Virus record (IMG/VR): IMGVR_UViG_3300045988_051111
DNA: 41,009 bases
Reading direction: 5' to 3' (one strand)
Source: a virus
Positions 1,478 to 32,411 of this stretch are shown one piece after another. A program made the translations under genes and the position numbers. Each line of letters opens with the position of its first letter. The stretch's first letter is position 1. The notes under the pieces were generated by a model, which was given only the letters and a program-made list of their open reading frames with translations, had not been told where the DNA came from and made no database searches.

Positions 1478-1922
1478 TCAGCCGAGTGGCATGGTGTCGC
1501 CGGAGAAGAAGCGAGGATACCCCCCCCCCGAGCGCCGCGTCATACGTCGAGGCGAGCTCCAACTGGGGTTGCGAGTACACTCCTTGGTTAAAAAACACGA
1601 CGCGGTTTTTCTTCTGGCTGCCCGTTGCGGGCGCGGTGAGCCGGATGACGATCATCCCGTTGCCGTCCGGGACGGTGTTCGAGGAGTACAGTTCGCCGAT
1701 GACGAGCATGACAGAGCCTCTGCCGTTCTCTGACCTGACGCTAAACACGTACTCGGCGCCGGGGTTCAGCTCGGGGACGTGCAGCTCGTCGTACCCCTGA
1801 GATCGCGACGGTCGGAGCGTGCCGTCACCGGGCATGTCATTCGCGTAGTCGATGCCCCACGCGCCGAGCGAGGCGCCGTTACGGTCGAACCGTGGATTGG
1901 GATACCAGTTAATCCTCTGCAT
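1478..1922 (-). CDS. Receptor-binding-like tail protein, paralogue A, interrupted by a G10 tract (G9 would give 147 aa ending ...GGGYPRFFSGDTMPLG)
   Basis: ATG at 1922 follows AAGGAG. N-terminus is MQRINWYPNPRFD. As written, the frame runs on to 1062 through a low-quality R/H-rich sequence that overlaps paralogue B. Confidence 0.55.
1520..1529 (-). repeat. Homopolymer G10 (C10 on the plus strand) inside paralogue A
   Basis: Counted directly: c at 1520 plus nine c at 1521-1529. Confidence 0.95.
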
Positions 1923-2079
1923 GATTCTCCTTATCGAGACTGTCGAGCACATCCTGCGGGATCAGTTTCATGACCGCCGCGAGTTGGCTGGTGAGGATCG
2001 CTATCTGCTTGTTGAGTGTGCCGATCTGTTGCGAGAGCTGGTCGATGACGGTGTTCGCGTCGGCTGGAATCTGAGTCAA
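1909..2079 (-). CDS. Small coiled-coil-like protein (56 aa, TTG start)
   Basis: AAAGGAG lies 5 nt upstream of the TTG at 2079. Sequence is MTQIPADANTVIDQLSQQIGTLNKQIAILTSQLAAV... Its 3' end overlaps the next ATG. Confidence 0.4.
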   Translation of the reverse strand: MTQIPADANTVIDQLSQQIGTLNKQIAILTSQLAAVMKLIPQDVLDSLDKENHAED

Positions 2080-2156
2080 AATGTCTCCTTTTTAATGCGG
2101 AACCCCCACAATCCGATTGGATTGCAGGGGTTGAAAAACTGGGTGAAAAGCAGGGG

Positions 2157-2471
2157 TCAGTCGGCGGCGGTCATCGTGTCGATACGGGTCACGGCCTTAA
2201 GCTCGTCCAAGGTGAGGGTGCGTCCGAGATTCGTCTTAACATCCGTCACTTTGACGGATGTGCCGGAATCGTCGAACGTGGCGAGCACGCCGCGCTGGTA
2301 GTCGCGCCACGATTCGGCGGTGCCGTCAGCGCTGGAAAACTCCAATCCCAATCGGCACAATTCCGCGCGCACCGACTCCTTCGGCGGACGCAAATCAAGC
2401 ACGCCAGACGGCTCGGCGGGCGTCACGGTAGGCGAGGTATCGGTAGTGGTCTCAGTGGTCACATCGGTCAT
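2157..2471 (-). CDS. Hypothetical tail-region protein (104 aa)
   Basis: Internal ATG of ORF 2157..2537, with AAGGAG 7 nt upstream. Confidence 0.55.
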   Translation of the reverse strand: MTDVTTETTTDTSPTVTPAEPSGVLDLRPPKESVRAELCRLGLEFSSADGTAESWRDYQRGVLATFDDSGTSVKVTDVKTNLGRTLTLDELKAVTRIDTMTAAD

Positions 2472-2482
2472 AATCAATCTCC

Positions 2483-3067
2483 TTAATTCTGTTGGTTTTG
2501 TCTTGGCATGAGCGCTTCGTAAAAGCGTTCCTCGCATTCGTCCAGCATCGCCTGACTGGATTCATCCTCAAGGAAGGCGTCCAATCCATCGACATCCTGC
2601 GTACAGGCCACGTCGATGCCACTCGACGCTTCCGGTGCGGAAGCGTCAGCAGCCAATGCGGCGCACATTCGCGCGTCGGTCTCATTCGACATGACCGGCA
2701 ATCGCAGCCCGGCGCGCGTCCTGTTTCGTGCGGCTGTCAGCGGATCGTCCAACACTTCCCCATCGGCGGCGAGCATGCTCACGTCTGTCGCGGAATCGGC
2801 CAAAGCGTTTTCCAACGCTTCGAACGCCCCGGTCCACACGCCACGCCCCGTCGAAGGATCGTATCGGCTCGTGTCCTCCCTGCCCTGCATGATCGCCGCG
2901 ATCGCCTCACGGGTCGAAGCCAACCCGAGCAGCGCCTTCCACGATGCGAGCACCTCAGGCATGAACACGAAACTGTTCGACCCGTTCACCGGCGGATCGC
3001 ATCGGATGATGCACAATCCGTTCGCATCCCGTTCGAAAGTCGATGACAAGATTTTCCCTCCAATCAT
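2483..3067 (-). CDS. Hypothetical tail-region protein (about 194 aa)
   Basis: ATG at 3067 overlaps the Tal stop (AAATGA). An alternative TTG start follows GGAGGG. Confidence 0.55.
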   Translation of the reverse strand: MIGGKILSSTFERDANGLCIIRCDPPVNGSNSFVFMPEVLASWKALLGLASTREAIAAIMQGREDTSRYDPSTGRGVWTGAFEALENALADSATDVSMLAADGEVLDDPLTAARNRTRAGLRLPVMSNETDARMCAALAADASAPEASSGIDVACTQDVDGLDAFLEDESSQAMLDECEERFYEALMPRQNQQN

Positions 3068-6000
3068 TTGACCAGATAGGCCAGGTATTCTGCGTACACT
3101 TCGACCGGGCACGGCTGGTCGGCGTTGAAAAGCTTCAGGTTGAAGCCGCTCTGACCGCCCGTGCTGGTGGGATGCGCGATGATGCCGGCCCATTCCGAAT
3201 CCGCGTTCGCGACCGCATAATAGCGGCCGTATTTCGTCGGACTGAGCCTGCAAGTGATTTGCGCTGATGCGCCGGTCGGGATGCTATGGCCGGGGTTCGG
3301 CCACCACGCCTTCCACGCGGCGCCGGATTGGAAGGTGGACCTGTTCGCGATGCCGCCGAGAAAGCCGCCGAGATACAAATATCCGGTCGCGATGTTCGCT
3401 CCGACTCCGACCCTGCCGTTCGCGTCGCGCGCTTGGAGCCAGACCCTCGCACCGTTCACGCTATCGTAGGACAAATCGAGCGACGCACTGGCAGTTTTGC
3501 TCTCGTCGGGCTCGTCGTAATTACTGTCCGCCATGGCGTACACCTCGGACGCGATACCGCCGCTTCCGGTGCCGCCCCGCTCGCGTGGCTTGGATCCCAG
3601 ACGCAGGAAAGACGCCGGGTCGTTCTTTTTGACGTGTCCGCTCCAAAAATCCAAGACGCTCATCTCGCCGACATCGTTCGACTGGACGGCCGATGCGATG
3701 GCCGGAAACCTGTAGTATTCGCTGTTCGACGAGTCACAGGCCACGAATTCCACTCCGTCACCGATAGACTTTTCCGCTCCGCCAATGACACCGGTCGCGT
3801 AGTCCGGAGAAATACGCACCCTATGCCCGCTAACGCGGGTCTGGAACGTGCCGGTCAGCAGGTTCGACCTGCCCTCGCCGTCCAGAATGACGGTCTGGTT
3901 GTGGTTCGAATCCCACATCCGCAGGCCCGTCGAATTGAGCTTCACGCCAGTGTTCGCAGCCTCGGAGCTTTGGAATATCGCGCCGGTGAAGACGTAGCCT
4001 CGGAACTGGCCAGCGGCCACCTTGTCGGACGTGATCGTTCCAGCCGCGATCTTCACAGCGGTCACCGAATTGGCGGCGAGCTTGTCCGTGGTGATCGCGC
4101 CGGATACTATCTTGTCGGCGTTGACCGCGTTGGCGGCGAGTTTGTCGGCGTTAACGCTGTTGGAGGCCAGCTTGTCGGTCGTGACAGCGCCAGCCACGAT
4201 GTCGCCAGCCTGAATCTTATGGACATTCAGGAGCGCCACGGTCATGTCCTCCGTCACGCGGAGCTTCGCGGTCGTGACCGAGTTCGCGGCCAATTTGTCG
4301 GTGGTGATGGCGAGCGAGACGATGTTGCGTGCCTGCACCGAGTCGGCTGCGAGCTTCGCGGCGGTCACCGCGTCGGCCACCAGCTTCTCAGCGGTCACGC
4401 TGTTGGCGGCGAGCTTGTCCGTGGTGATCGCATTGGCCTTGACCTTCTCGGCGGTCACGGAGTCCACGGCGAGATGCTTCGCGGCCACGGTTCCAGACGC
4501 GAGAATGTTGTTCGCCACGAGGTCAAAAGGTTCGAAGCGCGTGCCGTCCCACGTCAGGACTTCAACGACGCGATCTGCAAGCGGCACCAAAACGCTTGGA
4601 GAAGCATTGGGCGCACCCTGCCAGTACGTGTAGAAGTCGGCCATGAGGCTGGGCGAATTGTTCTTCTCGCCCTTCCAGCGCGTCCAATATTTTTGGGTGC
4701 GCCACCACATGTCGCCCGGCTTCAGCCCATCATGCGCGGGTTCGTCCGGGCCACGGTAGATGAGGTTCTTGCCGTCCGCCGTGGTCTGCGCCTTTCTCGC
4801 GGCGGCCTGCGCCTGATTCGCCTGCGCGGCCGCGTTCGCGGCTGTGGTCTGAGCCTTGTCAGCCGTTGATTGCGCCGTCTGCGCGGCAGCATGTGCCTTG
4901 ACAGCCGCATTGGCCGCATCGGTGGCCGCCTTGTCCGTCACCGCCGACCATGTGCCGCCGTTCCACCGTTTCGGCGTGTTAGCGCCATTCGTCGTGTCTA
5001 TCCACAGTGTCGTGGACTTGCGCATCGACGCATCCGGAGCAGTGGACTGGATGAGCACGTCGGCCTTGCCGTTCGCCACGCCAGCGGCGGCGGCAGCAGC
5101 CGTATTCGCCTTCTGCGCGGCATTCGCCGCATCGGTGGCGGACTGGGCCGCACTGTCAGCCGTGGCTTTCGCTTGGGTCGCAACGCTCGAAGCATTGACT
5201 GCTGTGGACTTGGCGGCATTGGCGGACTCATTGGCAGTATTCGCCAGAGTCTGCGCATTGCCAGCCGTCTTCTTCGCGCTCTCGGCGGCGGTCTGTGCCG
5301 CGTTGGCGGCATCCTTCGCCTGACCTGCGGTGACGGTGGCACTCTTGGCGGCAGTCTGGGCGGCATCCGCCGTTGACTGGGCCGTGCCTGCGGCGCTCTT
5401 CGCACTGTCTGCCGTGCCCTGCGCGTTTTTCGCTGCGGCAGCGGCATTCTCAGCGGCCTTCTTCGCGTCGGTGGTCTTCGCCGCGTTGTCCGCGATATCC
5501 GACTTCGCCTGCTCGATCTGCTTCGCATTGTTCTCCACGTCGGCATAGCCCATGTGGTTCCACGCGGAGCCATCCCACACAAGCGTATCGACCACGCGAT
5601 CAGACAGAGGCACCAAGACGCTCGGACTGTTATTCGGAGTCCCCGTCCAGTAGGTGTAGAAGTCGGCAAGCATGGAAGGGCTGTTATTGGGCGTGCCCTT
5701 CCAGCGAGTCCAATACTTCTGCGTTTTGAGCCACAGGTCGCCGACGATGAGATTGTCCTTCGGCTCGTCGGGGCCGCGAAACGTATGGTTCTTGCTATGG
5801 GCTTCGGCATACGCCTGCGCCACCGACTCCTTCGCCTTGCTGATCTCGCCGTTCGCCGTGGTCAGGTCGCTTTTGGTCTGCGCGATGTCCTTCCGCGCCT
5901 GAGACAGATCGGCCTTGGCTTGCGAGAGCGTCTGATTCGCCGCATCAAGACCAGTCTTATTCGCCTGAATGTCCTTCTGGGCCTGCGTCAGCTTCGCCGT

Positions 6001-7914
6001 ATTATCCTTCAAAGCCGTCTGATTGTCAGCCAGGTCTTTTTGGATCTGCTTGACCTCTTCAGGCGAGACAGCCGAAGCCACCGTCACCGAGGCGACTGCC
6101 GACCAGTCGGACCTGTTGCCCGCATGGTCGACCGAACGAAGGGCGTAGGAGTGCTGTGACCCGGCTGCCAGACCGGTCACGAGATAATCGCCCTGACCGG
6201 ACTGGTTTGCGCTGATGACGGTCATGACGGCCGCATCGACGCCCTCGCCGACCTCAATATGGTCGAAGTCCGATTCCATCGACGCGCCAGTGCTTGTCCT
6301 GCCATCCCAATGGACGGTCACCACGCCAAGCTCGGACGCAAGCACCGGCTTCGACGGTACGGAGCATGGCGTCGTATCCGACTCCACAGTTGCCACCACG
6401 ACGGCCGACCATTCGCCGAGCTTGTCCGAATACGTCGGCACGGCCCTGACGCGCACCTCGATTTGCGTGCCGCAATCCAAGCCGCCGAAACCGAGCTGCG
6501 TCTTATCAGTCGTGCCTGCCGAATGCCAAGGCGCACCATCCACGTGCCTGCGCCACTCAATGGCGTAATTGCTGATCTCGATGGACGTGTTGTTCGTGGC
6601 TTCGGTCACGGCGGACCACGAAGCCGTGGCCAGACCATGCGCGAAACCATCCGCACCAATGTAGGCGTCGGTCTGCACGATCAATCCGAGAGGGGCCTTC
6701 GGCACGCGATGGTCACGGTCGGACGAGGCGGTCGTGCCGCCCTCGCTGCCGGCCAACGCGGCGCCACCGGTGATGCCCTTGATCTTCTTCGCCTGACGCA
6801 CGGAAGCGTCATACTTAATATCATTCAGAGCGATTGAGCAGGATAAGCCCTCGTTCTGGCGCATGCTCAGGTCGATTTCCTGCACGCGCACCTTCTCCCC
6901 ATGGGAGACGGTGGGGGCGGTAATCCAATCGCCAGCATGATAGTCAACGAGCGGCAGACTGTCCATGTCGGAAACGATGAGATCGCGCGTGTACTGGCCA
7001 CGCACTCTCGCCGCATCATCAAGCGTGGACTGCATGAATGCCTGCGCGGTATCCTTATCGGACACGCCACCCTGCGAGCTATAGGATTCCCACTTGCCCC
7101 AAGGCGTCGGAGCAGCCGGATTATCCATGCGAAAAAGCAGATTATTGTCACCCTCGACAAGGATGGTTGATGCCAGGTCGGCGATGGACTCCTCGAATGG
7201 GGCTTCGCTGATGTCACGAGCCAATTGCAGCACGACCTGCTTGCTTAGATCACGACTCAAAGCCGTGCTGTCCGCATTCCACATTTTCAGCGTGCGGCCG
7301 CTGGTGCGCCAGTCGCAGCCACCGCCATTGACCAGCGAGCTGAGAATGGTCTGCAGGTCGGTGCCGAGCGAATAATACAAAGTGTATTTTCTGTTCCAGG
7401 CATCACCATTCGAGTCTCTGGCGGTGTCGAAGCCGAGCGTCAGGCCGGTGGCCGCGCCGCCACGGGCCTTATTCTCGTCAAGGAGCGTCTTGAGAATCGT
7501 GCCCGGATTGGACGAATAAAATGGGCGCTTGCCCTTGTTGTCGCCGTCCGTGAGCAGATGGCTGGAATCGTTGTTCTCCGCCTTGCTCAGGAGCCAGCTG
7601 ATCGACTGGCCGGAATAGGTGACGGTCTTGGTACGGTCGTCCGTCTTGCCGCTGCGCCCAGTGATGACATAGCGAGCATTGTCCGGCTCGCGATAGCCGG
7701 TGCCGTCCGACACCTCCACGGCCACCTCGATACCGTCAGTAAGCTCACGGTCGAACGCCTGCGCGTCACCGGACAGCATCGAATACTCGATACTGATGGC
7801 ACCGTCATCATCGTGGAGCATCGACGCGCTGAAGCTCACCGGCTCCGCCAATACGCCGATACGTGCGCCGAAAGGCCTGTATGCCACCAGACGAGCATGC
7901 AAAGACTTGCCCAT
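3064..7914 (-). CDS. Tail-associated (Tal-like) giant tail tip/fibre protein, 1616 aa
   Basis: The N-terminus resembles siphophage Tal/prophage-tail proteins. It also has FN3-like segments, Ala/Gln-rich coiled coils, a duplicated roughly 80-aa module, xSVTAxKLAAN-type fibre repeats and a distinct C-terminal domain. Confidence 0.85.
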   Translation of the reverse strand: MGKSLHARLVAYRPFGARIGVLAEPVSFSASMLHDDDGAISIEYSMLSGDAQAFDRELTDGIEVAVEVSDGTGYREPDNARYVITGRSGKTDDRTKTVTYSGQSISWLLSKAENNDSSHLLTDGDNKGKRPFYSSNPGTILKTLLDENKARGGAATGLTLGFDTARDSNGDAWNRKYTLYYSLGTDLQTILSSLVNGGGCDWRTSGRTLKMWNADSTALSRDLSKQVVLQLARDISEAPFEESIADLASTILVEGDNNLLFRMDNPAAPTPWGKWESYSSQGGVSDKDTAQAFMQSTLDDAARVRGQYTRDLIVSDMDSLPLVDYHAGDWITAPTVSHGEKVRVQEIDLSMRQNEGLSCSIALNDIKYDASVRQAKKIKGITGGAALAGSEGGTTASSDRDHRVPKAPLGLIVQTDAYIGADGFAHGLATASWSAVTEATNNTSIEISNYAIEWRRHVDGAPWHSAGTTDKTQLGFGGLDCGTQIEVRVRAVPTYSDKLGEWSAVVVATVESDTTPCSVPSKPVLASELGVVTVHWDGRTSTGASMESDFDHIEVGEGVDAAVMTVISANQSGQGDYLVTGLAAGSQHSYALRSVDHAGNRSDWSAVASVTVASAVSPEEVKQIQKDLADNQTALKDNTAKLTQAQKDIQANKTGLDAANQTLSQAKADLSQARKDIAQTKSDLTTANGEISKAKESVAQAYAEAHSKNHTFRGPDEPKDNLIVGDLWLKTQKYWTRWKGTPNNSPSMLADFYTYWTGTPNNSPSVLVPLSDRVVDTLVWDGSAWNHMGYADVENNAKQIEQAKSDIADNAAKTTDAKKAAENAAAAAKNAQGTADSAKSAAGTAQSTADAAQTAAKSATVTAGQAKDAANAAQTAAESAKKTAGNAQTLANTANESANAAKSTAVNASSVATQAKATADSAAQSATDAANAAQKANTAAAAAAGVANGKADVLIQSTAPDASMRKSTTLWIDTTNGANTPKRWNGGTWSAVTDKAATDAANAAVKAHAAAQTAQSTADKAQTTAANAAAQANQAQAAARKAQTTADGKNLIYRGPDEPAHDGLKPGDMWWRTQKYWTRWKGEKNNSPSLMADFYTYWQGAPNASPSVLVPLADRVVEVLTWDGTRFEPFDLVANNILASGTVAAKHLAVDSVTAEKVKANAITTDKLAANSVTAEKLVADAVTAAKLAADSVQARNIVSLAITTDKLAANSVTTAKLRVTEDMTVALLNVHKIQAGDIVAGAVTTDKLASNSVNADKLAANAVNADKIVSGAITTDKLAANSVTAVKIAAGTITSDKVAAGQFRGYVFTGAIFQSSEAANTGVKLNSTGLRMWDSNHNQTVILDGEGRSNLLTGTFQTRVSGHRVRISPDYATGVIGGAEKSIGDGVEFVACDSSNSEYYRFPAIASAVQSNDVGEMSVLDFWSGHVKKNDPASFLRLGSKPRERGGTGSGGIASEVYAMADSNYDEPDESKTASASLDLSYDSVNGARVWLQARDANGRVGVGANIATGYLYLGGFLGGIANRSTFQSGAAWKAWWPNPGHSIPTGASAQITCRLSPTKYGRYYAVANADSEWAGIIAHPTSTGGQSGFNLKLFNADQPCPVEVYAEYLAYLVK
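4010..4505 (-). repeat. Coding tandem repeats (about 33-36 nt period; ITTDKLAANSVTAEKL-type) within Tal
   Basis: Recurring gcggcgagcttgtc(c/g)g(t/c)ggtgat units on the plus strand. The peptide is periodic. Confidence 0.7.
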
Positions 7915-7920
7915 GATTAA

Positions 7921-8826
7921 CTACTCCCATGATTGCAAAAACCGGCATGTCACCTTGTCGGTGCCGCCGGTCTGTCTGATATCGAGCCGATAGTCGCCGG
8001 AATCGATCGCGGGCCACACCTGCAACGGTTCGGTGGTCCAGTCGACGCCATTCGACGCATCCGTACCACCGGACCATGCGTCGGCATTGGCAGCCGTCCA
8101 CGCCTTGCGATTGGCCACATCGATAAAGAGGTAAGGTCGTGAGGCGTCACGCTGGCCGCCCCACATGAGGTTCGTGCCACTCACCGGATCCGCGATGGTA
8201 ACGCCAGTGGCCGCTCCGAAACGAAGCACCAGCATGCCGATCGGAGCGTTGGAAAGCCACCCCTCCGGCATGATGTCGAAAAGCTCGGACGGCCCGGCGT
8301 TAGGCAATCCCTGCCAGCGAGCCCAATACCCCTTGCCGCTCGGCTTGGAAACCCCGCCCGGCAGCAGCCTGCCACCCGACGCGGCCAACGTCGCCTCCTG
8401 CCACTGCACGCCACGCCAAAACACGTCCGGCAGTTGGAACACGGCGGTCATGACGCGCAGGTCGCGGAACGGGCGTTCGTCATCGTCCGGCTCGCAGCTC
8501 GTGCACACCGCTCTCGTGACCATGCTGCGAGAACTGCCGTCCTCCAAGGTCTCCGTCCTGCCGAGCGTGAGCTTCGCCGCATGCAGGCAACGGGCACGGA
8601 AACGCGAGATCAGCGCATCGGAATCCGCGCCCCACGCCGCGACCTTGATTGTCAGCTCCGGCGCGTCCAGCACCGGAATCGAGGAGCCTACGATGACGCC
8701 GCTGCGTCCGCTCACCTGCACCGTGTCAATGATCGGCGACAGCGACGTGTAATGCGTAGTGCCGACGATGACGCGCATCCGCTCGGAGTCGAGCGGCTGG
8801 CCGTTGAGCGAATAGCTGACTTTCAT
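7921..8826 (-). CDS. Distal tail protein (Dit-like), 301 aa
   Basis: Sits between TMP and Tal and has typical size. Contains a YWARWQGLPNAGPS motif that is also present in Tal. Confidence 0.65.
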   Translation of the reverse strand: MKVSYSLNGQPLDSERMRVIVGTTHYTSLSPIIDTVQVSGRSGVIVGSSIPVLDAPELTIKVAAWGADSDALISRFRARCLHAAKLTLGRTETLEDGSSRSMVTRAVCTSCEPDDDERPFRDLRVMTAVFQLPDVFWRGVQWQEATLAASGGRLLPGGVSKPSGKGYWARWQGLPNAGPSELFDIMPEGWLSNAPIGMLVLRFGAATGVTIADPVSGTNLMWGGQRDASRPYLFIDVANRKAWTAANADAWSGGTDASNGVDWTTEPLQVWPAIDSGDYRLDIRQTGGTDKVTCRFLQSWE

Positions 8827-8841
8827 TCGGATTCCTCCCGA

Positions 8842-23176: not shown

Positions 23177-23178
23177 GA

Positions 23179-23355: not shown

Positions 23356-23585
23356 TTCGTGTCCTTGCTTTGGTTCGGTGTCTCGTCCGGCATGGTGTCG
23401 GGATGGTCGAGCATGTGCTGGCAATGGCGTATGACCATCGCCAGTGTGTCTGCCTTTATGAGGTTGGCGTTGATGTTGGCGTAGAAGTCGCCGTCCGGTG
23501 CGTCGCAAAGCTCGTTGGCGAGGTCGGTGCACCAGTCGATGATTTCGTGCAGGGTTTTGTTTTTCTGGGTTATGTTCGTGGGCAT
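23352..23585 (-). CDS. Hypothetical protein, 77 aa (paralogue of the N-terminal half of 25856..26359)
   Basis: MPTNITQKNKTLHEIIDW...MPDETPNQSKDTK compared with MATNVTEKDKALQEVIDF...MPSEVPNQSEDTK. Confidence 0.55.
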   Translation of the reverse strand: MPTNITQKNKTLHEIIDWCTDLANELCDAPDGDFYANINANLIKADTLAMVIRHCQHMLDHPDTMPDETPNQSKDTK

Positions 23586-24376
23586 GGTTTTTCCTTCCGG
23601 TTGAGTTCGGCGGCGAGCGTGCATGCTGTTTCGTCTGGTTGGGCGGTTTCCTTGTCGCGTCCGAGCGCTTGCAGGACGTGTTCGCATTGCCACGTGTGTA
23701 TGTGGCGTTTCGAGGGTGGGATGCCGCTCATGTTGGCGCGGCGTTGGCACCAGCCTTTCCATTGGCGTGTCCAGTCGTTAATGGTGCGTGTTTCGTGTTG
23801 GTGGCGGCCTGCGAATGCGAGCCATGCGGATTCGAGGTCGAGGTTCGGATATTCCACGGCCAGTGTCTTGTCGGTTTCGACGCACTCCCGCGATTCGCCG
23901 AAATCCTTCACGCCGGTTTCTTTGGAGAAAGAAGAAGAATATTCTTCTTTCTCTTTCTTTGGTGTTCTGGTGTTCTGGTGTTCTGGTGTTTGTCCCGATT
24001 CTGTTTCGATTCTGCCGGCAGTCTGCGCACTTTCTGCCGGCAGACTTTCGGCAGAATACCGTTCGCGCTCACGCTTGCGTTTGGCCATGACCTGCTGACG
24101 GCTCCGGTTGTGCTCAAGATAATCGTGGATGACATAGCCGCCATCCACGCTCTCGATCAATCCGACCTGCTGCAATGCGTCAAGCTCCTGCACGGTGATG
24201 TCGAGCACGAACTCGGCGGTGTCCTCGTCCACATAACCGTCCGTGAGATTGTCACCGCAGTAGGAAAGCATGACGACGAATGCGCTGATGGCAGAGGGCA
24301 TGGTGCGGCGTAGACGGCGCACCTTCCGGTTCAGGTAGAAGCCGTTCGACAATTGCACGTACCCGCGCCTAGCCAT
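23570..24376 (-). CDS. Putative replication initiator / replisome organiser, 268 aa
   Basis: The N-terminus (GYVQLSNGFYLNRKVRRL...) resembles phage replisome-organiser N-domains. A central low-complexity linker coincides with a DNA repeat cluster. Confidence 0.4.
   Translation of the reverse strand: MARRGYVQLSNGFYLNRKVRRLRRTMPSAISAFVVMLSYCGDNLTDGYVDEDTAEFVLDITVQELDALQQVGLIESVDGGYVIHDYLEHNRSRQQVMAKRKRERERYSAESLPAESAQTAGRIETESGQTPEHQNTRTPKKEKEEYSSSFSKETGVKDFGESRECVETDKTLAVEYPNLDLESAWLAFAGRHQHETRTINDWTRQWKGWCQRRANMSGIPPSKRHIHTWQCEHVLQALGRDKETAQPDETACTLAAELNRKEKPCPRT
23932..24055. repeat. Repeat cluster (candidate ori): 18-bp AT-rich palindrome, 4 x 8-bp tandem ggtgttct, 2 x cgattctg, 2 x ttctgccggcag
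   Basis: Read directly: palindrome at 23932-23949; tandem units at 23961-23992; 12-mers at 24010-24021 and 24032-24043 (22-bp spacing). Confidence 0.55.
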
Positions 24377-24393
24377 TTATCTCTCTCCTTCCT

Positions 24394-24853
24394 TCATCTT
24401 TCTCCGGTGCGCATTACGACGATCATGCTGGGGAATGGCGCCGGGCCGCCCGGTATGCCGTTCGTCTCGAACCGGAGTCGGCCTTTGAGGAACCTGACCT
24501 CCGCACGGTTGAGAATGAATTGTTGGAACCAGCGTGTGTCGGTGCGAGCGGGCAGGAGCATGACGACGAGGGTGTCTTTGCGGCTGGCTTCTGCGCTGCA
24601 TTTGCGCACCCATTCCGCGATTGCCTTGCCGTATGGAGGATTGCAGAATACCGTCTCCCCCCCCCCACTCATGATCAAATGCGCTGTCTTCGGCTGTATA
24701 GTATTTCTGGCACTTGTGGTTCGTTGCGCTGCTAGCCGCGTCTAACGTGAAGTGAAACTCCGCGTCGAGCTGGTCAAACAATTCCTGTGGAGTCTCCCAA
24801 TTCATGCGGTTTGACATGTAAGCTGCGCCACCGGCACCAGTGAAATCGCTCAT
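24394..24853 (-). CDS. Dam-like DNA N6-adenine methyltransferase (phage Dam family), interrupted by G10 (G9 gives 152 aa)
   Basis: Upstream frame: NWETPQELFDQLDAEFHFTLDAAS...DHEWGG. Downstream frame: ETVFCNPPYGKAIAEWVRK...LLPARTDTRWF...RLRFE. Confidence 0.75.
24657..24666 (-). repeat. Homopolymer G10 inside the Dam-like MTase
   Basis: Counted directly: four c at 24657-24660 plus six c at 24661-24666. Confidence 0.95.
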
Positions 24854-25665: not shown

Positions 25666-25859
25666 TTCGTGTCCTTCCAATGTTTTTCACGCCAGTCGGC
25701 GATTCTCTGACGGTCTTCGTCTGTTAATCCCTCATGGCACTTGAACATGACAAGGCTGAGCGCGAACTCGTAGCCTTCGCTCCACTTGTCAGGCACGCCA
25801 TGCACATGGTTCTCGTCGAAGAGGTAACGGCAGTAATCATGCAGTTCGTCAATCGTCAT
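25662..25859 (-). CDS. Hypothetical protein, 65 aa
   Basis: ATGA coupling. Conserved junction. Confidence 0.5.
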   Translation of the reverse strand: MTIDELHDYCRYLFDENHVHGVPDKWSEGYEFALSLVMFKCHEGLTDEDRQRIADWREKHWKDTK

Positions 25860-26359
25860 TTCGCGTCCTCGCTTTGCTTGGTGGTTTCGGTTTCATGTTC
25901 ATCGAATGGGACTGCCAGCTTCACGTGGCTGTTCATGATCGCGATGCGAGCCGGATCTTTAAACCACGTAATGCCTTCGGCATAATGCACGTATCCGCAA
26001 GCAAGCCCATAAATCCCGTCACAGCGTTCCGCCCACCCGCTTTTCAGGTAGTATGTTTCGTTCGTATCAAGTTCCACGCGCAGACCCATGTCATGCGGGA
26101 GGAGTTCTGACACACTGCTCTTTTTCGTGTCCTCGCTTTGATTCGGCACCTCGGACGGCATGGAGCCGGAATAGCCAAGCAGGTGACGGCAGTAATTGAT
26201 TACATGCTCGTAAGCCGTCGTCATTCCGTCGTAAAAGTTGTACTTCAGCACTCCTTTGTCTGGATTATCAGAAGCGTTATTAGCTGCGTCCCACTCTTTT
26301 TCCAGAAAGTCGATGACTTCCTGCAGGGCCTTGTCTTTCTCGGTGACGTTCGTGGCCAT
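25856..26359 (-). CDS. Hypothetical protein, 167 aa (N-terminal module paralogous to 23352..23585 fused to an extra domain)
   Basis: GAAAAGGAA RBS. The internal relic of the junction sequence at 26122-26145 lacks ATGA. Confidence 0.55.
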   Translation of the reverse strand: MATNVTEKDKALQEVIDFLEKEWDAANNASDNPDKGVLKYNFYDGMTTAYEHVINYCRHLLGYSGSMPSEVPNQSEDTKKSSVSELLPHDMGLRVELDTNETYYLKSGWAERCDGIYGLACGYVHYAEGITWFKDPARIAIMNSHVKLAVPFDEHETETTKQSEDAK

Positions 26360-26361
26360 GG

Positions 26362-26754
26362 CTAGTGTTCCTTTTCTTCGATTCTTATGGTGATGTGGTA
26401 GACGCCCTTCTGCGTGCTGGGCTGGCCGAGCCGGTAGTCGGGGCCTGTCACGTATATGGCGTTGTCGTCGGGCCAGTAGCCTGACTGGGTGATGCCGTCG
26501 AGTATCGCCTTGACCATGGGGGCCGCGTTCTCGGGGTCGAACCGTCCGTGTGTCAATGGGTGGATGATGGCTGTCACGTGCACCGGCCAGTATGTCGGGC
26601 GCGTGAGTCTGCCGGCGTTGATGAGACTGCGGAAGGTGATGTGGGCGGCGTCCTTGACCCGCTTCTTCTTGGCGTATGGCACCGCCCAGCTGCGGCTTCG
26701 AAGGTTCTGCGTCCACCACAGTTGCCTGCTGATCGCGATGTCAATCTCGCTCAT
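26362..26754 (-). CDS. rusA: RusA-like Holliday junction resolvase, 130 aa
   Basis: DPENAAPMVKAILDGITQSGYWPDDNAI matches the RusA core pattern. GAGGAGG RBS. Confidence 0.75.
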   Translation of the reverse strand: MSEIDIAISRQLWWTQNLRSRSWAVPYAKKKRVKDAAHITFRSLINAGRLTRPTYWPVHVTAIIHPLTHGRFDPENAAPMVKAILDGITQSGYWPDDNAIYVTGPDYRLGQPSTQKGVYHITIRIEEKEH

Positions 26755-26884
26755 AATGGTCGGCCTCCTCTTCCTCGGCTTCGATCTCGCATTCGGGGCA
26801 TGGGATGGGGCGCGCCGGATACAACGCGCACCCATGCCTCGGACAGACCGGTTCCACGTCAGGTGGTTCGATCCATTCGCGCAT
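26741..26884 (-). CDS. Small zinc-ribbon-like acidic protein, 47 aa
   Basis: Sequence MREWIEPPDVEPVCPRHGC...CPEC. TGATG overlap with the SSB stop. Confidence 0.35.
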   Translation of the reverse strand: MREWIEPPDVEPVCPRHGCALYPARPIPCPECEIEAEEEEADHYERD

Positions 26885-27384
26885 CAGAATTCACCGTCCG
26901 CGTCCGCCCACGGGTCAGTCGCTGTCGCGCCACCACCGGCGGCGCGGTCGGCGGCCCACGGGTCGGTCGCTGGCGAGTCGGCCCGTTGTCCCGTGGGTTG
27001 GGGGCGCGTGGCCCGTTGGCTGTCGGCGCGCGTGACCTGCGCGGTCGCGTACCGCAGGGACGGGCCGATCTCGTCCACCTGCATCTCGATCACGATGCGG
27101 TTGGAGCCATCCTGAGCTTGATAGGAGTGTTGCCGCAACCGTCCCTGCGCGATCACGCGCATGCCCTTCGACAGGCTCTGCGCGCAATGCGCGGCGAGGT
27201 CACGCCAAGCGGCGCAGCGGAGGAACAACGCTGGACCGTCCTCCCACTGGCCGGACTGGCTGTTGTATTGGCGTGGCGTGCTGGCGATGGTGAAATTGCA
27301 GACCGTGCCACCATTCTGAGTCGTGCGGGTTTCCGGGTCGGCGGTCAGATTGCCGACGATCGTGATAACGGTCTCTCCGGCCAT
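26884..27384 (-). CDS. ssb: Single-stranded DNA-binding protein, 166 aa
   Basis: OB-fold N-terminus ITIVGNLTADPETRTTQNGGTVCNFTIAS. Gly/Pro-rich linker. Acidic tail DPWADADGEF. Confidence 0.9.
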   Translation of the reverse strand: MAGETVITIVGNLTADPETRTTQNGGTVCNFTIASTPRQYNSQSGQWEDGPALFLRCAAWRDLAAHCAQSLSKGMRVIAQGRLRQHSYQAQDGSNRIVIEMQVDEIGPSLRYATAQVTRADSQRATRPQPTGQRADSPATDPWAADRAAGGGATATDPWADADGEF

Positions 27385-27554
27385 CACTCACCATCCTTCA
27401 CGTCGAAGATGTGTATGAATTCACCTTTTGCCCTGCCGTAAGCGTCCCCACGCCCATCGTCGTAAGAGAAGTCCAGGCACAATTCCTTAGCTCTTTCAGC
27501 TTCGGCGCACTTACTGTCCAGCCATTGCAGGTACTTGCGAATCTTCTCGTCCAT
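27384..27554 (-). CDS. Hypothetical protein, 56 aa
   Basis: TGATG overlaps at both ends. Below the ORF-track cutoff. Confidence 0.4.
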   Translation of the reverse strand: MDEKIRKYLQWLDSKCAEAERAKELCLDFSYDDGRGDAYGRAKGEFIHIFDVKDGE

Positions 27555-28399
27555 CACTCACCGTCCTTTGCTTCCGTCTCAGGCTCGGCGCCGGTGTCCG
27601 ACATGTCCGGCTCCAGGACTTCGGCGGTCACGTCGTCGGCTTCATCGGTGCCGTCATCCTCAAGCACCGGCTGGAACACATCGCCGTAATCGGGCGTGGT
27701 GTCGTCATTGGCGGCGGCGGTCTGCGCCTGCACGGTCAAAGGCAGGTACGGTGCCGCGCGACGGATGGCGGTCTTCTTCGCCATGGCCTCGTAATCGGTC
27801 TTCCACGGGCCGAAATTACCGCTCTTGCTGCGCGCCCTCGCCTGCTCGATCTCCTGACGGTTCAGAACGAGGAAGTAGTGGCCACCGTCCTTGAAATGCG
27901 CGACCATGTACACGTGGGTCAGTTCGCCGGGGTTGGCGCATGGCACGTGGCGCAAATCCTCGTTGAGACCATAACTGTAGGAGAATTCGTCTCCCTGGTG
28001 TACGGCTCGGGCGCTGATGTCCACGAGCTGGCCGCTGCGGCGCGCCAGGTCGATCATGCCGCGATAGCCCATGATGAACGTGGCCTCCATGCCTCCGGTC
28101 TTCTTGTTGCGGAAGGGCAGCACGTAGGCGCGGCCCAGTCCGTCCACGTTGGACGGTTCCAATCCGAGCGCGCTGCAGGTCATGAAGCAGGAGAGCACGC
28201 TTTGCGGCGAGCATTCCGCGAGTTTTGGCGTTTTGTTGATCGCGGACACGCACATCTGGTAGAGGCGGTCGGGGCTGATGTTGTTGCCGACGACGCTGGC
28301 GATGCGCGGCCAGCTTTTCTTCATCATCATTTTCAGATTTTGTTTCGGCGTCATTTCGACCATCTGCTGTCCCTGCGCCTGCTGTGCGATTGCTCCCAT
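27554..28399 (-). CDS. recT: RecT-family single-strand annealing recombinase, 281 aa
   Basis: RecT-like core (...CSALGLEPS...AYVLPF...GYRGMIDLARRSG...). Paired with a YqaJ exonuclease. AAGGAG RBS. Confidence 0.85.
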   Translation of the reverse strand: MGAIAQQAQGQQMVEMTPKQNLKMMMKKSWPRIASVVGNNISPDRLYQMCVSAINKTPKLAECSPQSVLSCFMTCSALGLEPSNVDGLGRAYVLPFRNKKTGGMEATFIMGYRGMIDLARRSGQLVDISARAVHQGDEFSYSYGLNEDLRHVPCANPGELTHVYMVAHFKDGGHYFLVLNRQEIEQARARSKSGNFGPWKTDYEAMAKKTAIRRAAPYLPLTVQAQTAAANDDTTPDYGDVFQPVLEDDGTDEADDVTAEVLEPDMSDTGAEPETEAKDGE

Positions 28400-28401
28400 G
28401 A

Positions 28402-29364
28402 TTATTGCTCCTTTTCTTCGGTGGATTTGAATGCGAATTTGCGGTATGTGGTGGCTTTGACGACGTATTCCTTGCGGGTCGTCGGCTTGTAGGTGGCTTG
28501 GAGGTTGCCGCAACGCACGCCCGTATGCGAGCCGATGCGCACGATGATCTGCTCCTGCAATGCCTTCTGCTCGTTTTTCAGTTCCTTCGCGCGGTTGGAC
28601 GTGCTCTCGTATCTTGCGAGCAGGTCGTAGAGGTCATCGTCGTCGCTTTCGTCCACGATGTCCGGAGCGGGTTCCGGGAACGCCTTCTGCACGTCGCCGC
28701 CGGTCAATTGCGGTGGCGTGCCGGTGGTGACGAAACGCCAGAAGTCGGCTGCGGCCTTGTCGATCGCGCCCATATCCTCCACGTCGGCCTTGAACGGAAT
28801 CTCTACCGGCTCGTCGTCTCCGATGGCCGCGTACACGACTCCCCACGTCCATCCCGTTACAAGCGCGTAGAACTCGACTTGGGCGAGATAATAAGGTGGG
28901 ATTCGGAGGCTGCCGTCCTCGTCATGCCAGTCCCCCGCTCGACGGTTGCTCGCCGTTTTGATTTCAAGGATTCCAAAACTTCCGTCCTCACCTTGCAGGA
29001 TGCCGTCAAGGGAAGCGCGCAGGTATGGCTTCCCGCGCATGATGAACTGCTTGTCGGTGCCGTCCGTGACGAGCATTTCCGGATGATTGGCGCGGAAACG
29101 CTTCCTGAGCTCGTTCTCCAAGGCATTGCCCTTGACGATCGCCCACTTGTCCGAGATGTCCTCCGGTTCCACGCGGCCGGTCTTCTCAAGCCACAATTCG
29201 TACGGTGTCTTGAAGGAATTCAGGCCGAGGATCGTGCTCATGTCGGAACCGCCCACACCCGCCTTACGGCTTTTCAACCACGCGAGATGACGTTCCGTCT
29301 TCTTGCACTGCCGGAACCGTTCAATCGTGTAGCGTTCCGTGTCCTTGAGTGGGATACGTTTCAT
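28402..29364 (-). CDS. YqaJ-like (lambda Exo-type, PD-(D/E)XK) recombination exonuclease, 320 aa
   Basis: GGSDMSTILGLNSFKTPYELWLEKTG and ...LEIKT... motifs are typical of YqaJ. Confidence 0.85.
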   Translation of the reverse strand: MKRIPLKDTERYTIERFRQCKKTERHLAWLKSRKAGVGGSDMSTILGLNSFKTPYELWLEKTGRVEPEDISDKWAIVKGNALENELRKRFRANHPEMLVTDGTDKQFIMRGKPYLRASLDGILQGEDGSFGILEIKTASNRRAGDWHDEDGSLRIPPYYLAQVEFYALVTGWTWGVVYAAIGDDEPVEIPFKADVEDMGAIDKAAADFWRFVTTGTPPQLTGGDVQKAFPEPAPDIVDESDDDDLYDLLARYESTSNRAKELKNEQKALQEQIIVRIGSHTGVRCGNLQATYKPTTRKEYVVKATTYRKFAFKSTEEKEQ

Positions 29365-29519
29365 TCCTTCGTCGCCTTCATTTCTTGGACTTCAGCGTCG
29401 AAAAAATCGATGATGAGATTGCAGATGGCGGGTGCCGACGTTTTGAGTTGGGCTTTTTCCTCTTCGCTTTCGGCTTTGATGGCGAAAACGCCATCCTTGC
29501 TATTGAAATTGAGTCTCAT
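29361..29519 (-). CDS. Hypothetical protein, 52 aa
   Basis: ATGA overlaps at both ends. Confidence 0.4.
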   Translation of the reverse strand: MRLNFNSKDGVFAIKAESEEEKAQLKTSAPAICNLIIDFFDAEVQEMKATKE

Positions 29520-30163
29520 TTCGCCACGTCCTTCGAGTAGTTGGCTTTCAGGTCCATGAGTTCGCCGTTGAGGAGTTTCGTGGCGAATCCGTAGACGACC
29601 TTGTCGTTGGCTTGGAATGCGGTTCGTTGCAATGCGCTTACTGCGTCGAAAATGCCGGTCAATGCGTTGGAGATGATGGCGCGTGGATCGGCTGTGGCTT
29701 GTGGCCTGACGCTGATGGTTCCGGTGGTGATGCCGGTCGGTGTGAGTTTCTCTGCGGTGATGCTGGTCGCTGTGAGTTTCTGTGTGGTGGTCATGGTTTC
29801 TTTCTTCTTTCCGGTTGTGGTGGTTTCCCGTGCTTTGCTGCGTGGTGAATGCTTGTCGAAGGCCGGCAATAGTCCTTCCTTGCGGAGTTGGCCGAGAATG
29901 TTGCCGACCGTTTTCTGGCTTAGGTTGAGCGCTTCGGCGGTTTCCTTGCCGTCGAACGGTTGGCCTTGGTCAATGCGTTTCTTGCAGTGCGCGAGGATGA
30001 GGTCTCGTTTCGACGGCGCTTCCGGTTTCGCCGGAAGGCCATTCGTGAGTAGTCCGGACTTGCGTAACGCCCGCATTTCCGTGATGTCGAGACCGGCCTC
30101 GCCCAACTCGTCGTAGATTTTCTTCAGTTCGGCGAGTTCGCCGTCCGTGTATTCGTGTTTCAA
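29516..30163 (-). CDS. Hypothetical wHTH-containing protein, 215 aa (TTG start)
   Basis: ETAEALNLSQKTVGNILGQLRKEGLL is HTH-like. Internal short repeat KLTATSITAEKLTPTGITTG. Confidence 0.5.
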   Translation of the reverse strand: MKHEYTDGELAELKKIYDELGEAGLDITEMRALRKSGLLTNGLPAKPEAPSKRDLILAHCKKRIDQGQPFDGKETAEALNLSQKTVGNILGQLRKEGLLPAFDKHSPRSKARETTTTGKKKETMTTTQKLTATSITAEKLTPTGITTGTISVRPQATADPRAIISNALTGIFDAVSALQRTAFQANDKVVYGFATKLLNGELMDLKANYSKDVAK

Positions 30164-30338
30164 CGTGTTCCTTTTCTTAAGTTTTCGATGAGCGCGTGGT
30201 TTTCGCGGATGAACCCGTCCACGTCGATTCCCTGCTGCGTGAGGGTCGGCTTGCCGGTGTCGACGCGTGCTTTCCCGTCGTTTTGACGTCTGGACTGCTT
30301 TTAATCCGTGTCACCGGAACGAACACTCCGTTTTTCAT
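30160..30338 (-). CDS. Small early protein apparently requiring a -1 shift at G GGA AAG (about 59 aa)
   Basis: ATGA-coupled start at 30338. The zero frame after 30270 is S/T/R-rich and ends at 30177. The -1 frame (ARVDTGKPTLTQQGIDVDGFIRENHALIENLRKGTR) ends in a TTGA overlap with the next gene. Confidence 0.4.
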
Positions 30339-30556
30339 CTCGCCACCGTCCTCTGGTACTTGTGTGCCAAAGCCCACTTTTCCGCGATTTGACGCTGGTA
30401 GCGGACCTTACGCCTGTCCTGATGGCCTTCCGGCGGTTCCACGCCGATTTTCAAGTACGGCGGGCCCTTGCCGGTACTCCGCCAGTTGGCGAGGGTGCGT
30501 GGGCTCATGCCGAGCATGGCGGCAAGGTCGGCTGGCGTGAGCAGATCGTCACTCAT
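30335..30556 (-). CDS. HTH_17/excisionase-family DNA-binding protein, 73 aa
   Basis: LLTPADLAAMLGMSPRTLANWRSTGKGPPYLKIG is a MerR/Xis-type HTH. Confidence 0.7.
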   Translation of the reverse strand: MSDDLLTPADLAAMLGMSPRTLANWRSTGKGPPYLKIGVEPPEGHQDRRKVRYQRQIAEKWALAHKYQRTVAR

Positions 30557-31328
30557 GGTCGGCGCGTGGGCAGTAGCGGCTGATGAAGTACGTCTGGCCT
30601 TTGCCGGTGACCTTCGCGGTGCGGTTGATGGTCACGTGACCGTCCGAATGGGTGATGGCGGTTTCCTTGATTCGGAACAGTCCCAAGTCCATGGCCTTCT
30701 GTGTTGGCACGTTGCGGTTCGAGCCGGTCTTGCCGAGATACCCGTCCTGTCGAAGAATCTCGAAAAGTCGGTTCTGGCCGATGTCCAAACCGTTCTGACG
30801 CAGCATCTTCGCCAGTTCCCCGATCAGGCACGTGCCGTCCGACGCGGCCACGGCGTCCGCGAACCGTGCCTTGGGTTCCAGTTCTTTGATGTGTGATTCC
30901 TGCGCGGCGATGCGTCGCTTCTGTTCCTCCATGGTGCGTTGGCCGATCATCACGGCCTTCGCGAGGATGGTCATGTCATCATCCGCGTCTGTGGTTGGAA
31001 TGTAGCCGCCGGTCTTGCGAATCTGGGGCAGTACCTCATGCGTCACCCAACGCTTAAACTCCTTGGCTTCCGGCTTCCGCGACTTCATCACAAGACAGTA
31101 AAGGCCAGGCTCGCTGATGATCGTCTTATTCGGATTACCAGCAATACCGTCACTAATAGTTACGGTATTCTTTTCGTCCGAATCAAGTTCCGCAGTTGCC
31201 TTGCGGCTATTCTCAAGACCGAGCACGTCGCATACGTCCTTGGCGATGAACCATGGTTCGCCATTCTCGTCGGTCAGCGCGCGCAGTGCCGCGCCTTTGA
31301 AATCGAATCGCTGGATTTCAGTGTTCAT
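30549..31328 (-). CDS. Antirepressor (BRO-N + KilAC/ANT C-terminal domains), 259 aa
   Basis: The N-terminal sequence FDFKGAALRALTDENGEPWFIAKDVCDVLGL is BRO-N-like. The C-terminus is KilAC-like. ATGA overlap with the MTase stop. Confidence 0.8.
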   Translation of the reverse strand: MNTEIQRFDFKGAALRALTDENGEPWFIAKDVCDVLGLENSRKATAELDSDEKNTVTISDGIAGNPNKTIISEPGLYCLVMKSRKPEAKEFKRWVTHEVLPQIRKTGGYIPTTDADDDMTILAKAVMIGQRTMEEQKRRIAAQESHIKELEPKARFADAVAASDGTCLIGELAKMLRQNGLDIGQNRLFEILRQDGYLGKTGSNRNVPTQKAMDLGLFRIKETAITHSDGHVTINRTAKVTGKGQTYFISRYCPRADHE

Positions 31329-32411
31329 CGGGTTTCCTTCTTGAAAAGTTCCTTGTTGTCTTCGACGAGTTGAATTCCTTCGCCGATCCATCTCATGACC
31401 GGAACGGCCATTGAATTCCCCAACGCCTTGTAGCGTGGACTGTCCGGCGAATGCTTTTTGCCTTTCCACGAGATATCCGTCCACCCGTCCGGGAATCCCT
31501 GGAGCCGTTCGCATTCCAGTGGAGTTAACCTGCGAACCGTCATGCGTTCATCGTTTGTCGGAAAGACGATTGGCGTATCTTTGGCGGCATGGGCCGTCAA
31601 TGTTGATGACATGTCCACCTCTCTGGCGCTGTTCGCCTGCGTCCCGTCATAGCAGTAGATGGCTGGATTATGTTCGGTGCTGAGAGTGGGACTCACTTCA
31701 CTAATCGCCAAGCTTCGGCTTTCCACACCTTGATTCCATTTGAACGCTTTTATCACCGGCGTACTGCATCCGTCGTTTGCATCTGCGTTTTCAGCAACTC
31801 CAGCAATTCCGCCGGCAATGCTTTTCCTCTTTTCTCGGCTCGACGGATGATCCCAGCACAGGCTTTCGCGCTCAAAAAGAACCGGGGCGGCACGTCGCCA
31901 GTCTCTAGTGTTGACGACAAGGAACACACGCTCGCGTCGTTGGGCCACACCGAAGAACTGAGCGTCCAGCACTCTCCATGCCGCCCCCCCCATCAGGCCA
32001 GAGTTCGGCCACGGCTTCAAGGAGCGACTGGAAAGCCCGTCCGTGTTCAGCCGACAGTGCTCCGGGCACGTTCTCCCAGACGATCCATTCCGGATCAATC
32101 TCTGCGCAAGCTCGGAAATATTCGAGCATGAGCTGGCCGCGTGGATCGTCCAAAGCCTTCCTGAGTCCGGCGATCGAGAAGGCTTGGCAGGGGCTTCCTC
32201 CCACAACGACATCTGCTGCATGGTGGTATTCCTTCCAGTTGACTTTGGTCATGTCTCTCAGGTCGGGGACGTTTGGGTAATGGTGTTTGAGCACGGCTTT
32301 TGGGAATGGTTCGACCTCCGCGTATGCGATTGGCTCCCATCCGAGTGGCTGCCAGGCGACCGATGCCGCTTCGATGCCACTGAACAGGCTGATGTAACGT
32401 ATCGTGCTCAT
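31325..32411 (-). CDS. DNA cytosine-5 methyltransferase, interrupted by G8 (G7 gives 361 aa)
   Basis: Upstream frame: FSGIEAA (motif I), GGSPCQAFS (IV), ENVPG (VI). Downstream frame: AAWRVLDAQFFGVAQRRERVF (VIII), RRLTPLECERLQGFPDGWT, GNSMAVPV (X). Confidence 0.85.
31984..31991 (-). repeat. Homopolymer G8 inside the C5 MTase
   Basis: Counted directly: seven c at 31984-31990 plus c at 31991. Confidence 0.95.

Follow-up and report, generated by a model that had tools for sequence, protein, structure and literature searches.

Introduction

A counterpart of the loci analysed here has been described in the same bacterial species. In Bifidobacterium breve UCC2003, a sortase-dependent pilus switch relies on coding-strand G10–G11 tracts with a frame-based ON/OFF logic (Penno et al. 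2022, PMC9187656). The slippage of these tracts was determined by experiment: error-corrected sequencing showed that a G10 tract was composed of 93.4% G10 and 6.5% G9, and a G11 tract of 37% G11, 59% G12 and 3% G10. In the present study we describe three long G tracts in a temperate B. breve phage, represented by the IMG/VR record IMGVR_UViG_3300045988_051111 (41,009 nucleotides [nt]; this whole stretch of DNA is referred to as the window). They are located in the genes of a small tail-region protein, a Dam-family N6-adenine methyltransferase and a C5-cytosine methyltransferase, and are very probably genuine, evolutionarily maintained hypermutable contingency loci, in which slipped-strand mispairing adds or removes single G residues. 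The pilus tracts, unlike those of the phage, lie near the 5' end of chromosomal host adhesin genes, and phage or prophage tracts are not mentioned in PMC9187656.

Among phages, a parallel is provided by the Campylobacter Fletchervirus group (Sorensen et al. 2021, as cited in PMC12633550 and PMC12823448), in which tracts of 7–11 G within receptor-binding genes generate phage subpopulations. As presented in the citing papers, these are virulent myoviruses of a Gram-negative host that carry tracts only in genes of receptor-binding proteins (RBPs). In contrast, the phage analysed here is temperate and siphovirus-like, its host is a Gram-positive actinobacterium, two of its three tracts reside in methyltransferase genes, and the tail gene has its tract at the very 3' end, with a frame-tolerant arrangement of genes behind it. 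PolyG tracts are also present in Bordetella phage BPP-1, within its methylase gene, and in PB1-like phages, within a baseplate gene; according to the preprint PMC12633550, these were noted in genome papers and not studied further, with no report of family-wide conservation or of a population census. The same preprint proposes contingency loci for coliphages T2 and T4, which would undergo reversible frameshifts at repeats as a form of bet-hedging, although the repeats, genes and hosts are different and the phages are virulent.

Two further systems are related in logic. In the phasevarions of Neisseria, Haemophilus and Helicobacter a simple-sequence repeat in a DNA methyltransferase gene toggles methylation; the classical examples belong to host restriction-modification (R-M) systems, being either Type III mod genes or Type I genes, and control a regulon, whereas the genes considered here are orphan phage methyltransferases of the Dam family and the C5 type. 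The Rin shufflon (Mavrich et al. 2018, PMC6109161) causes phase variation of the tail receptor-binding region in B. breve and B. longum prophages, but in this system a tyrosine recombinase inverts segments of DNA, and polyG tracts, frameshifts and methyltransferases are not mentioned in that paper. A methylome study of B. breve (PMC5829577) reported unexplained silent orphan methylases in mobile regions.

The literature that we searched, in which subscription journals are thinly covered (so that absence is not proof), contained no description of polyG or other homopolymer tracts in bifidobacterial phages, and the phage GenBank collection yielded only distant or partial matches. The mechanism is familiar. 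What appears to be new is the host group, the co-occurrence of a tail module and two switchable methylases in a single temperate phage, the cassette of tract and tail found throughout the family, and the three-frame landing arrangement described below.

Three G tracts in excess of expectation

The tracts, designated T1–T3, are as follows.

1520–1529, minus strand: T1 tract, G10; in frame at G9 or G12; codes for a Gly-Gly-Gly linker in a small tail-region protein, the stop of which lies 13 codons further on
24657–24666, minus strand: T2 tract, G10; in frame at G9 (TGG GGG GGG GAG, encoding W-G-G-E), five codons before the NPPY motif
31984–31991, minus strand: T3 tract, G8; in frame at G7 or G10; located between the motifs ENVPG and QRRER

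A count of homopolymers over the whole window confirmed the preliminary description, made from the sequence alone, that long G/C runs occur only at these three sites, all of them G on the coding strand. On the plus strand they appear as C10, C10 and C8, and they are the only G/C homopolymers of at least 6 nt; runs of 6–7 are absent, the longest remaining G/C run has 5 nt, and the longest A/T run has 6 nt. Run counts drop approximately 6.6-fold with each additional base, which reflects strong run avoidance in this genome. Extrapolation of this decay gave 0.06 expected runs of at least 8 nt compared with the three observed, and Markov models of order 2–5 gave 0–0.1; only the first-order model, which disregards the run avoidance, predicted about one. 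GGG is moreover the rarest glycine codon of the phage (7.4% of Gly codons). Thus, all three tracts are intra-ORF (open reading frame) homopolymers beyond compositional expectation.

Frame analysis bore out that each tract exceeds an in-frame length by exactly one G, and a change in length toggles all three genes between in-frame and out-of-frame states. It had also been proposed that each tract splits a gene whose halves are rejoined by the removal of one G. This holds for T2 and T3, where Pfam matches run across the tract, and not for T1, whose gene is unsplit, the tract being placed 13 codons before the stop.

Tract length varies among near-identical and divergent genomes

The first and last 119 nt of the window (1–119 and 40891–41009) are identical, and ten public B. 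breve loci span the junction with more than 99.9% identity over 11.6 kb; the window is therefore a complete circular B. breve phage genome of approximately 40,890 bp. In these ten loci, which match the window at 99.8–100%, the T1 tract was found as G7 (one locus), G9 (four), G10 (four) and G11 (one), and in most of them it is the only indel; one of the G10 loci is in frame through a T-to-G change. Another B. breve locus matches the window elsewhere in the genome with 99.99% identity over 20.8 kb; the differences are two substitutions and, in T3, an additional G.

For a wider census, the protein predicted for each tract length was built and looked up by exact sequence in a collection of 15 billion proteins (the counts are contigs).

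T1: G8 6, G9 76, G10 184, G11 43, G12 2
T2: G7 4, G8 60, G9 346, G10 672, G11 50
T3: G7 7, G8 678, G9 (fragments) approximately 18–39, G10 5

The G10/G10/G8 configuration of the window thus represents the commonest public states, and so it is not an error peculiar to the window assembly. Variation is far greater in the two G10 tracts than in the G8 tract, which is the outcome expected of slippage. Judging from accession series, single public genomes appear to carry the T1/T2/T3 combinations 9/10/7, 11/9/8 and 10/9/8, compared with 10/10/8 in the window.

The preliminary description had advised a comparison of tract lengths in related phage and prophage genomes, and this showed that the homologues carry tracts at the same positions with widely differing lengths. 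In divergent relatives all three tracts occupy the same sites, with 6–12 G and 14–39% of copies in frame. In the T1 family a G6–G12 tract occurs at the same place in 88 of 88 instances, although amino-acid identity of the protein body is only 24–90%; 29 of them are in frame and 59 out of frame (one third and two thirds; offsets 0/+1/+2 in 29/21/38 cases), and identical 72-nt flanks carry anything from G8 to G12. Length therefore differs among otherwise identical or closely related genomes, and two of the variable tracts lie in DNA methyltransferase genes (of the Dam family and the C5 type), a feature shared with phasevarions. The pattern in the relatives fits free switching at a maintained tract, and not a fixed recoding site or one-way decay.

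Two methyltransferase genes interrupted by the tracts

24394–24853, minus strand: interrupted phage Dam-family N6-adenine methyltransferase gene; N-terminal part 24667–24853, catalytic part 24394–24656 in the next frame
31325–32480, minus strand: interrupted C5-cytosine DNA methyltransferase gene; N-terminal part 31992–32480 (start of the gene callers at 32411), C-terminal part 31325–31983

In the window state (G10), the Dam-family gene forms a 158-aa (amino acid) ORF, the second half of which is an Arg-rich out-of-frame sequence. At G9 it encodes a 152-aa protein, in which the match to Pfam Dam (PF05869, E=1.4e-32, profile positions 8–145 of 169) extends across the tract, and FCNPPY follows directly; this version also matches PHROG 111. 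A full-length PF05869 match including NPPY was obtained for the G9 version only. Among IMG/VR relatives, 22 carry the tract at the same codons (G6–G11), of which 3 are in frame and 19 out of frame. Homologues that have the same residues without a homopolymer (e.g. TGGGAAGGGGAG) are in frame in 17 of 17 cases.

The stop of the window-state ORF (24377–24853) abuts the ATG of the gene at 23570–24376, and all three frames past the tract are open for at least 79 codons. In close relatives bearing the tract both alternative frames are open for at least 77/87 codons (median), compared with 13 in tract-less homologues. Such frame tolerance exceeds what synonymous shuffles predict for these genes, but it is suggestive and not established, as it concerns one clade and the per-gene shuffle P values range from 0.002 to 0.11. 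Start codons in both alternative frames are also present just upstream of the tract (24667–24678, cATGAGTG), namely ATG for G10/G7 and GTG for G8/G11, and gene callers therefore annotate C-terminal fragments of 90–92 aa as "phage N-6-adenine-methyltransferase"; the G10 form of this fragment was found on 672 contigs. These starts follow from conserved His-x-Trp residues and may be meaningless.

The protein of the C5 gene is cut at G8 to 191 aa, after the motif ENVPG, while the G7 version is a 384-aa protein that matches C-5 DNA_methylase (PF00145) over positions 2–322 of 324 (E=4e-50) and is the only one with the complete motif order FSG.E, PCQ, ENV, QRR, GNS. The 298-aa ORF of the window's own G8 state (P0153) occurs on 678 contigs. 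In IMG/VR members of the C5 family the tract spans 6–10 G and has two kinds of sequence context, one in frame at G7 and the other at G8; 22 are in frame and 34 out of frame. Most of the C5 relatives (L045–L103) contain a second G7–G11 tract approximately 600 nt downstream, before the last conserved motifs, which is absent from the window gene; few of these relatives are in frame at both tracts. In other systems, the halves of split C5 methyltransferases can complement each other, and the OFF state of the C5 gene may not be fully null.

Both methyltransferase genes belong to the phage early region, and inspection of the called genes around either of them showed no restriction gene.

The T1 gene and its C-terminal tail

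1530–1952, minus strand: body of the T1 protein; start of the gene callers at the ATG at 1922 (MQRINWYPNP...); predicted beta-sandwich resembling a carbohydrate-binding module (CBM)
1478–1519, minus strand: conserved C-terminal tail YPRFFSGDTMPLG and stop; read only at G9 or G12
1062–1952, minus strand: ORF of the window state (G10), 296 aa; T1 body fused to approximately 152–155 codons in the +2 frame across the next gene

At G9, translation terminates 13 codons beyond the tract, and the protein has the C-terminus ...GGGYPRFFSGDTMPLG, which is conserved in the family; the product of the next gene has a similar end, GYFTGNTMPLA. The DNA downstream of the tract is at least 90% conserved in most alignment columns. 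With G10, the exact 286-aa product is present on 184 contigs, and the stop of the 1062–1952 ORF forms an ATGA overlap with the start of the gene at 577–1065.

No Pfam domains or named homologues were found for the T1 family. An AlphaFold (AF2) model based on 35 sequences is confident (mean pLDDT 86.9) and comprises a beta-sandwich (residues 1–123) and a short helix (STYDAAL), and the tract-encoded Gly residues form a low-confidence linker ahead of the C-terminal tail. Structure matches in PDB and BFVD included carbohydrate-binding modules, toxin receptor-binding domains, actinophage minor tail proteins and lactococcal RBPs, with a TM-score of approximately 0.4–0.5. The gene is located between a large tail protein and the lysis genes. 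An RBP-like accessory module is thus a reasonable but not proven assignment of the T1 protein, and its C-terminal tail may be a docking or assembly element. The T1 product had previously been called an RBP-like tail paralogue; the first part of this name stands to the extent that gene position and the CBM-like model (TM approximately 0.45–0.5) allow, whereas the second is left with common terminal motifs. Sequence paralogy with the two following genes was indeed rejected: the hhalign alignment with gene 2 was limited to the final 34 residues (E=4e-4, probability 34%), and nothing significant was obtained with gene 3, the similarity being confined to terminal motifs.

We also considered a Rin-type shufflon at this locus. 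A repeat search of positions 1–3600 detected, as the best inverted repeats, sequences of 14–25 nt with 72–93% complementarity, and the sole recombinase of the phage is its integrase; this explanation was therefore dismissed, and the window phage differs from the Rin prophages in having no tail-tip inverted repeats.

Several variants of the cassette were observed. In a near-identical prophage (GCA_000771305.1, L186, positions 5538–5547) G10 results from a T-to-G change after the tract, and the frame is intact (147 aa), with GGGD replacing GGGY. Five IMG/VR relatives (L114 and L117–L120) contain two tandem T1-type modules, with tracts at approximately 1962 and 2894, each with its own following gene, i.e. 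two switches in the tail-tip region of some related phages. The T1-family cassette and tract are also carried by two contigs labelled as Collinsella metagenome-assembled genomes (L197, positions 703/3591; L198, positions 3450/6346), which have an additional C9/C8 run approximately 2.9 kb downstream, beyond lysin and holin-like genes. Their neighbour genes resemble those of B. breve phage, which may reflect wrong bins or a broader phage group. When each species was represented by a single genome, a search with the T1 profile confirmed only three loci, too few for a species-level picture.

Three-frame landing arrangement downstream of T1

1085–1450, minus strand: gene 2, a 121-aa module ending in GYFTGNTMPLA; its +2 frame is stop-free, and its ATGATG start holds the +1-frame stop (ATGA)
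577–1065, minus strand: gene 3, a 162-aa module ending in GGLMPLQN; its ATG and the stop of the +2 frame coming from the tract overlap

The endings of all three frames downstream of T1 were analysed in 62 distinct relatives. In the in-frame state translation stops after 13 codons, and the start of the next module gene is located 30 nt further. The +1 frame (G8/G11 here) terminates after 23 codons on an ATGA that overlaps the ATG of gene 2 (61 of 62 relatives). The +2 frame (G10/G7, the state of the window) is open for approximately 152 codons across gene 2, and its stop, again an ATGA, overlaps the start of gene 3 (59 of 62).

The +2 frame of gene 2 lacks stops in 59 of 60 distinct genes, compared with 1.7 expected from synonymous-codon shuffles. 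The mean numbers of stops (observed versus shuffled) were as follows.

Gene 2, +2 frame: 0.02 versus 2.85
Gene 2, +1 frame (control): 7.5 versus 8.0
T1 body, +2 frame (control): 4.75 versus 4.79
Gene 3, +2 frame (control): 4.85 versus 6.26
Twelve other window genes, +2 frame, per 122 codons (control): 3.0 versus 4.0

Judged by the shuffles, the stop-free +2 frame of gene 2 is not compositional, and no depletion of similar size was seen in the control frames or control genes. The sequences are related, and counts such as 59 of 60 therefore overstate independence; even so, gene 2 is highly divergent, with a mean amino-acid identity of 62% between sampled pairs.

The extension in the +2 frame was considered as a conserved overlapping protein and rejected: its identity between relatives (0.578) is no higher than that of the +1 frame (0.614) or the real frame (0.618), and it contains no Pfam domain. 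A functional fusion protein is nevertheless possible. Gene 2 itself shows an unusual mode of evolution: the identity of the real frame is not above that of the other frames, which suggests diversifying change or a constraint from the overlapping open frame.

In our reading of the sequence, selection holds the +2 frame open so that ribosomes in this tract state reach the next start, by which translational coupling would be kept and polarity on the lysis genes avoided; the +2 state may at the same time silence gene 2. The downstream arrangement indicates that the alternative tract states have long been exposed to selection. It is conceivable, although we would at present rather doubt than assert it, that T1 is a three-way "railway switch" and not a plain ON/OFF device, with tract length setting the combination of three carbohydrate-binding-like modules that is made, and with the lysis genes spared polarity. 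In frame 0 the tailed module would be made and the next module gene would initiate independently; the +1 frame would end on the ATG of gene 2 and couple its translation; in the +2 frame ribosomes would cross gene 2, occlude its start and land on the ATG of the third module. The G tract and the putative docking tail would then form a cassette conserved across a family of bifidobacterial phage tail modules.

Origin of the tract variation

The interpretation of the tracts as contingency loci, put forward in the preliminary description, was supported by these analyses: homologous homopolymers are present in relatives, and their lengths vary. As the prophage is copied by the same machinery as the slipping tracts of B. 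breve, slipped-strand mispairing is the economical explanation, and we infer replication slippage as the mechanism. Single Gs would be gained or lost as the prophage is replicated within the host chromosome, and presumably also during lytic replication, so that each tract-bearing gene would move among three reading frames. For the methyltransferases only one frame gives the full enzyme, while products of the others end before NPPY (Dam) or before motifs VIII–X and the target-recognition domain (C5). In the case of T1, the tract decides whether the CBM-like module bears the conserved 13-residue C-terminal tail. Such switching would probably generate phage subpopulations differing in DNA methylation and in tail-tip equipment, and methylases in ON and OFF states may yield virions with different methylation.

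Several observations weigh against this interpretation. The census counts contigs and not independent lineages, and many of them probably derive from one widespread clone; the variation is that between assembled genomes, at the level of sequence; and some public assemblies come from platforms prone to homopolymer miscalling (e.g. L192, which has G7 together with other indels). The Dam gene is in frame in only 3 of the 22 tract-bearing IMG/VR relatives and T3 is nearly fixed out of frame in the lineage (approximately 1–2% in frame), so both methylases could be dispensable. Moreover, the alternative frames of the C5 gene stop after 28 and 78 of 221 codons, i.e. there is no frame-tolerant arrangement at this locus.

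Three other explanations have to be considered. If the true lengths were G9/G9/G7, the consensus would contain one surplus G per tract owing to homopolymer miscalling, which would account for the same +1 offset at all three sites, and error-prone platforms did contribute to public assemblies of the prophage, including L192 with its extra indels elsewhere. Against this, the states of the window are the commonest in public data (184, 672 and 678 contigs for T1, T2 and T3), lengths of 6–12 occur in short-read metagenome contigs of relatives, and the 119-nt end overlap of the window is typical of short-read de Bruijn assembly. This trivial alternative, raised at the outset, is effectively excluded by hundreds of public assemblies of near-identical prophages, and we assign it a negligible probability. 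According to the second explanation the out-of-frame genome is normal, and the full-length proteins are produced by transcriptional slippage or ribosomal frameshifting. Long homopolymers can cause slippage of RNA polymerase, the modal state of all three tracts in the lineage is one G above an in-frame length, and some leaky expression from OFF states is possible. The relatives, however, show every offset (29/21/38 for T1; 22 in frame and 34 out of frame for C5, in both directions) with lengths of 6–12, and many alleles are in frame. The RNA preceding the tracts is no more strongly folded than shuffled sequences (z approximately 0.1), and of the stretches starting at a tract only that of T3 gives a modest hairpin (z = -2.2). 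Since neither a conserved offset nor an adjacent stimulatory structure was found, recoding, which the preliminary description had named as an alternative (transcriptional or +1 ribosomal slippage), is not favoured and seems quite improbable.

The tracts might, finally, be accidental hot spots in dispensable prophage genes that are undergoing loss, without adaptive switching. Most copies are indeed out of frame, T3 is nearly fixed OFF in this lineage, and 12 orphan methylases of B. breve, many of them in mobile regions, have no matching methylated motif (PMC5829577). Nevertheless, exact matches to the predicted fragments show that, the tract aside, hundreds of copies of the genes are intact; the tract is uninterrupted in all instances of the T1 family, even though a synonymous change would suffice to remove it and no glycine codon is rarer than GGG; the in-frame fractions of 33–39% (T1 and C5) match free switching and not one-way decay; and the stop-free +2 frame with its ATGA landings indicates long-term selection involving alternative frames. 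Because the genes are intact, the tracts persist despite the rarity of GGG and the downstream layout accommodates alternative frames, neutral decay is disfavoured and, in our judgement, as improbable as recoding.

Phage genome and prophage setting

36523–37653: integrase, the only recombinase of the window

The window has 59% G+C, and nearly all genes are carried by the minus strand. Their order is typical of a temperate siphovirus-like phage: the early region holds the C5 methylase, Bro/ANT, YqaJ/RecT, SSB and Dam genes, and beyond it are the terminase, portal, protease, capsid and tail genes, a 1616-aa tail protein, several small ORFs and the lysis genes. The same element is integrated as a prophage next to the host D-tyrosyl-tRNA deacylase gene in genomes including that of the B. 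breve type strain, and homology to host-flanked prophage copies stops near position 36374. The identical 119-nt ends suggest that the window was assembled from excised or packaged DNA by a k-mer-based assembler.

Significance for B. breve and its phages

B. breve, a probiotic species, is a dominant commensal of the infant gut. Its prophages belong to the small number of bifidobacterial phages known, and the inducible ones have so far no identified permissive host (PMC6109161). If tail-tip and methylation genes are switched as proposed, host-range tests with a single lysate would sample only part of the phage states. Prophage methylases annotated as fragments or as "non-functional" may likewise be switchable (PMC5829577), and annotation pipelines systematically mis-call these genes, as seen in the 90–92-aa methyltransferase fragments of RefSeq and the public 286-aa fusion ORFs. 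Methylation switching may help the phage to withstand the varied R-M systems that B. breve carries (PMC5829577), perhaps along with methyl-dependent restriction.

The frame-tolerant layout past T1 represents sequence-level evidence of selection on all three frames, and may serve as a cheap, testable signature of evolved contingency loci elsewhere. If the three-way arrangement at T1 does operate together with two switchable methylases, one prophage would give rise to many combinations of tail equipment and methylation.

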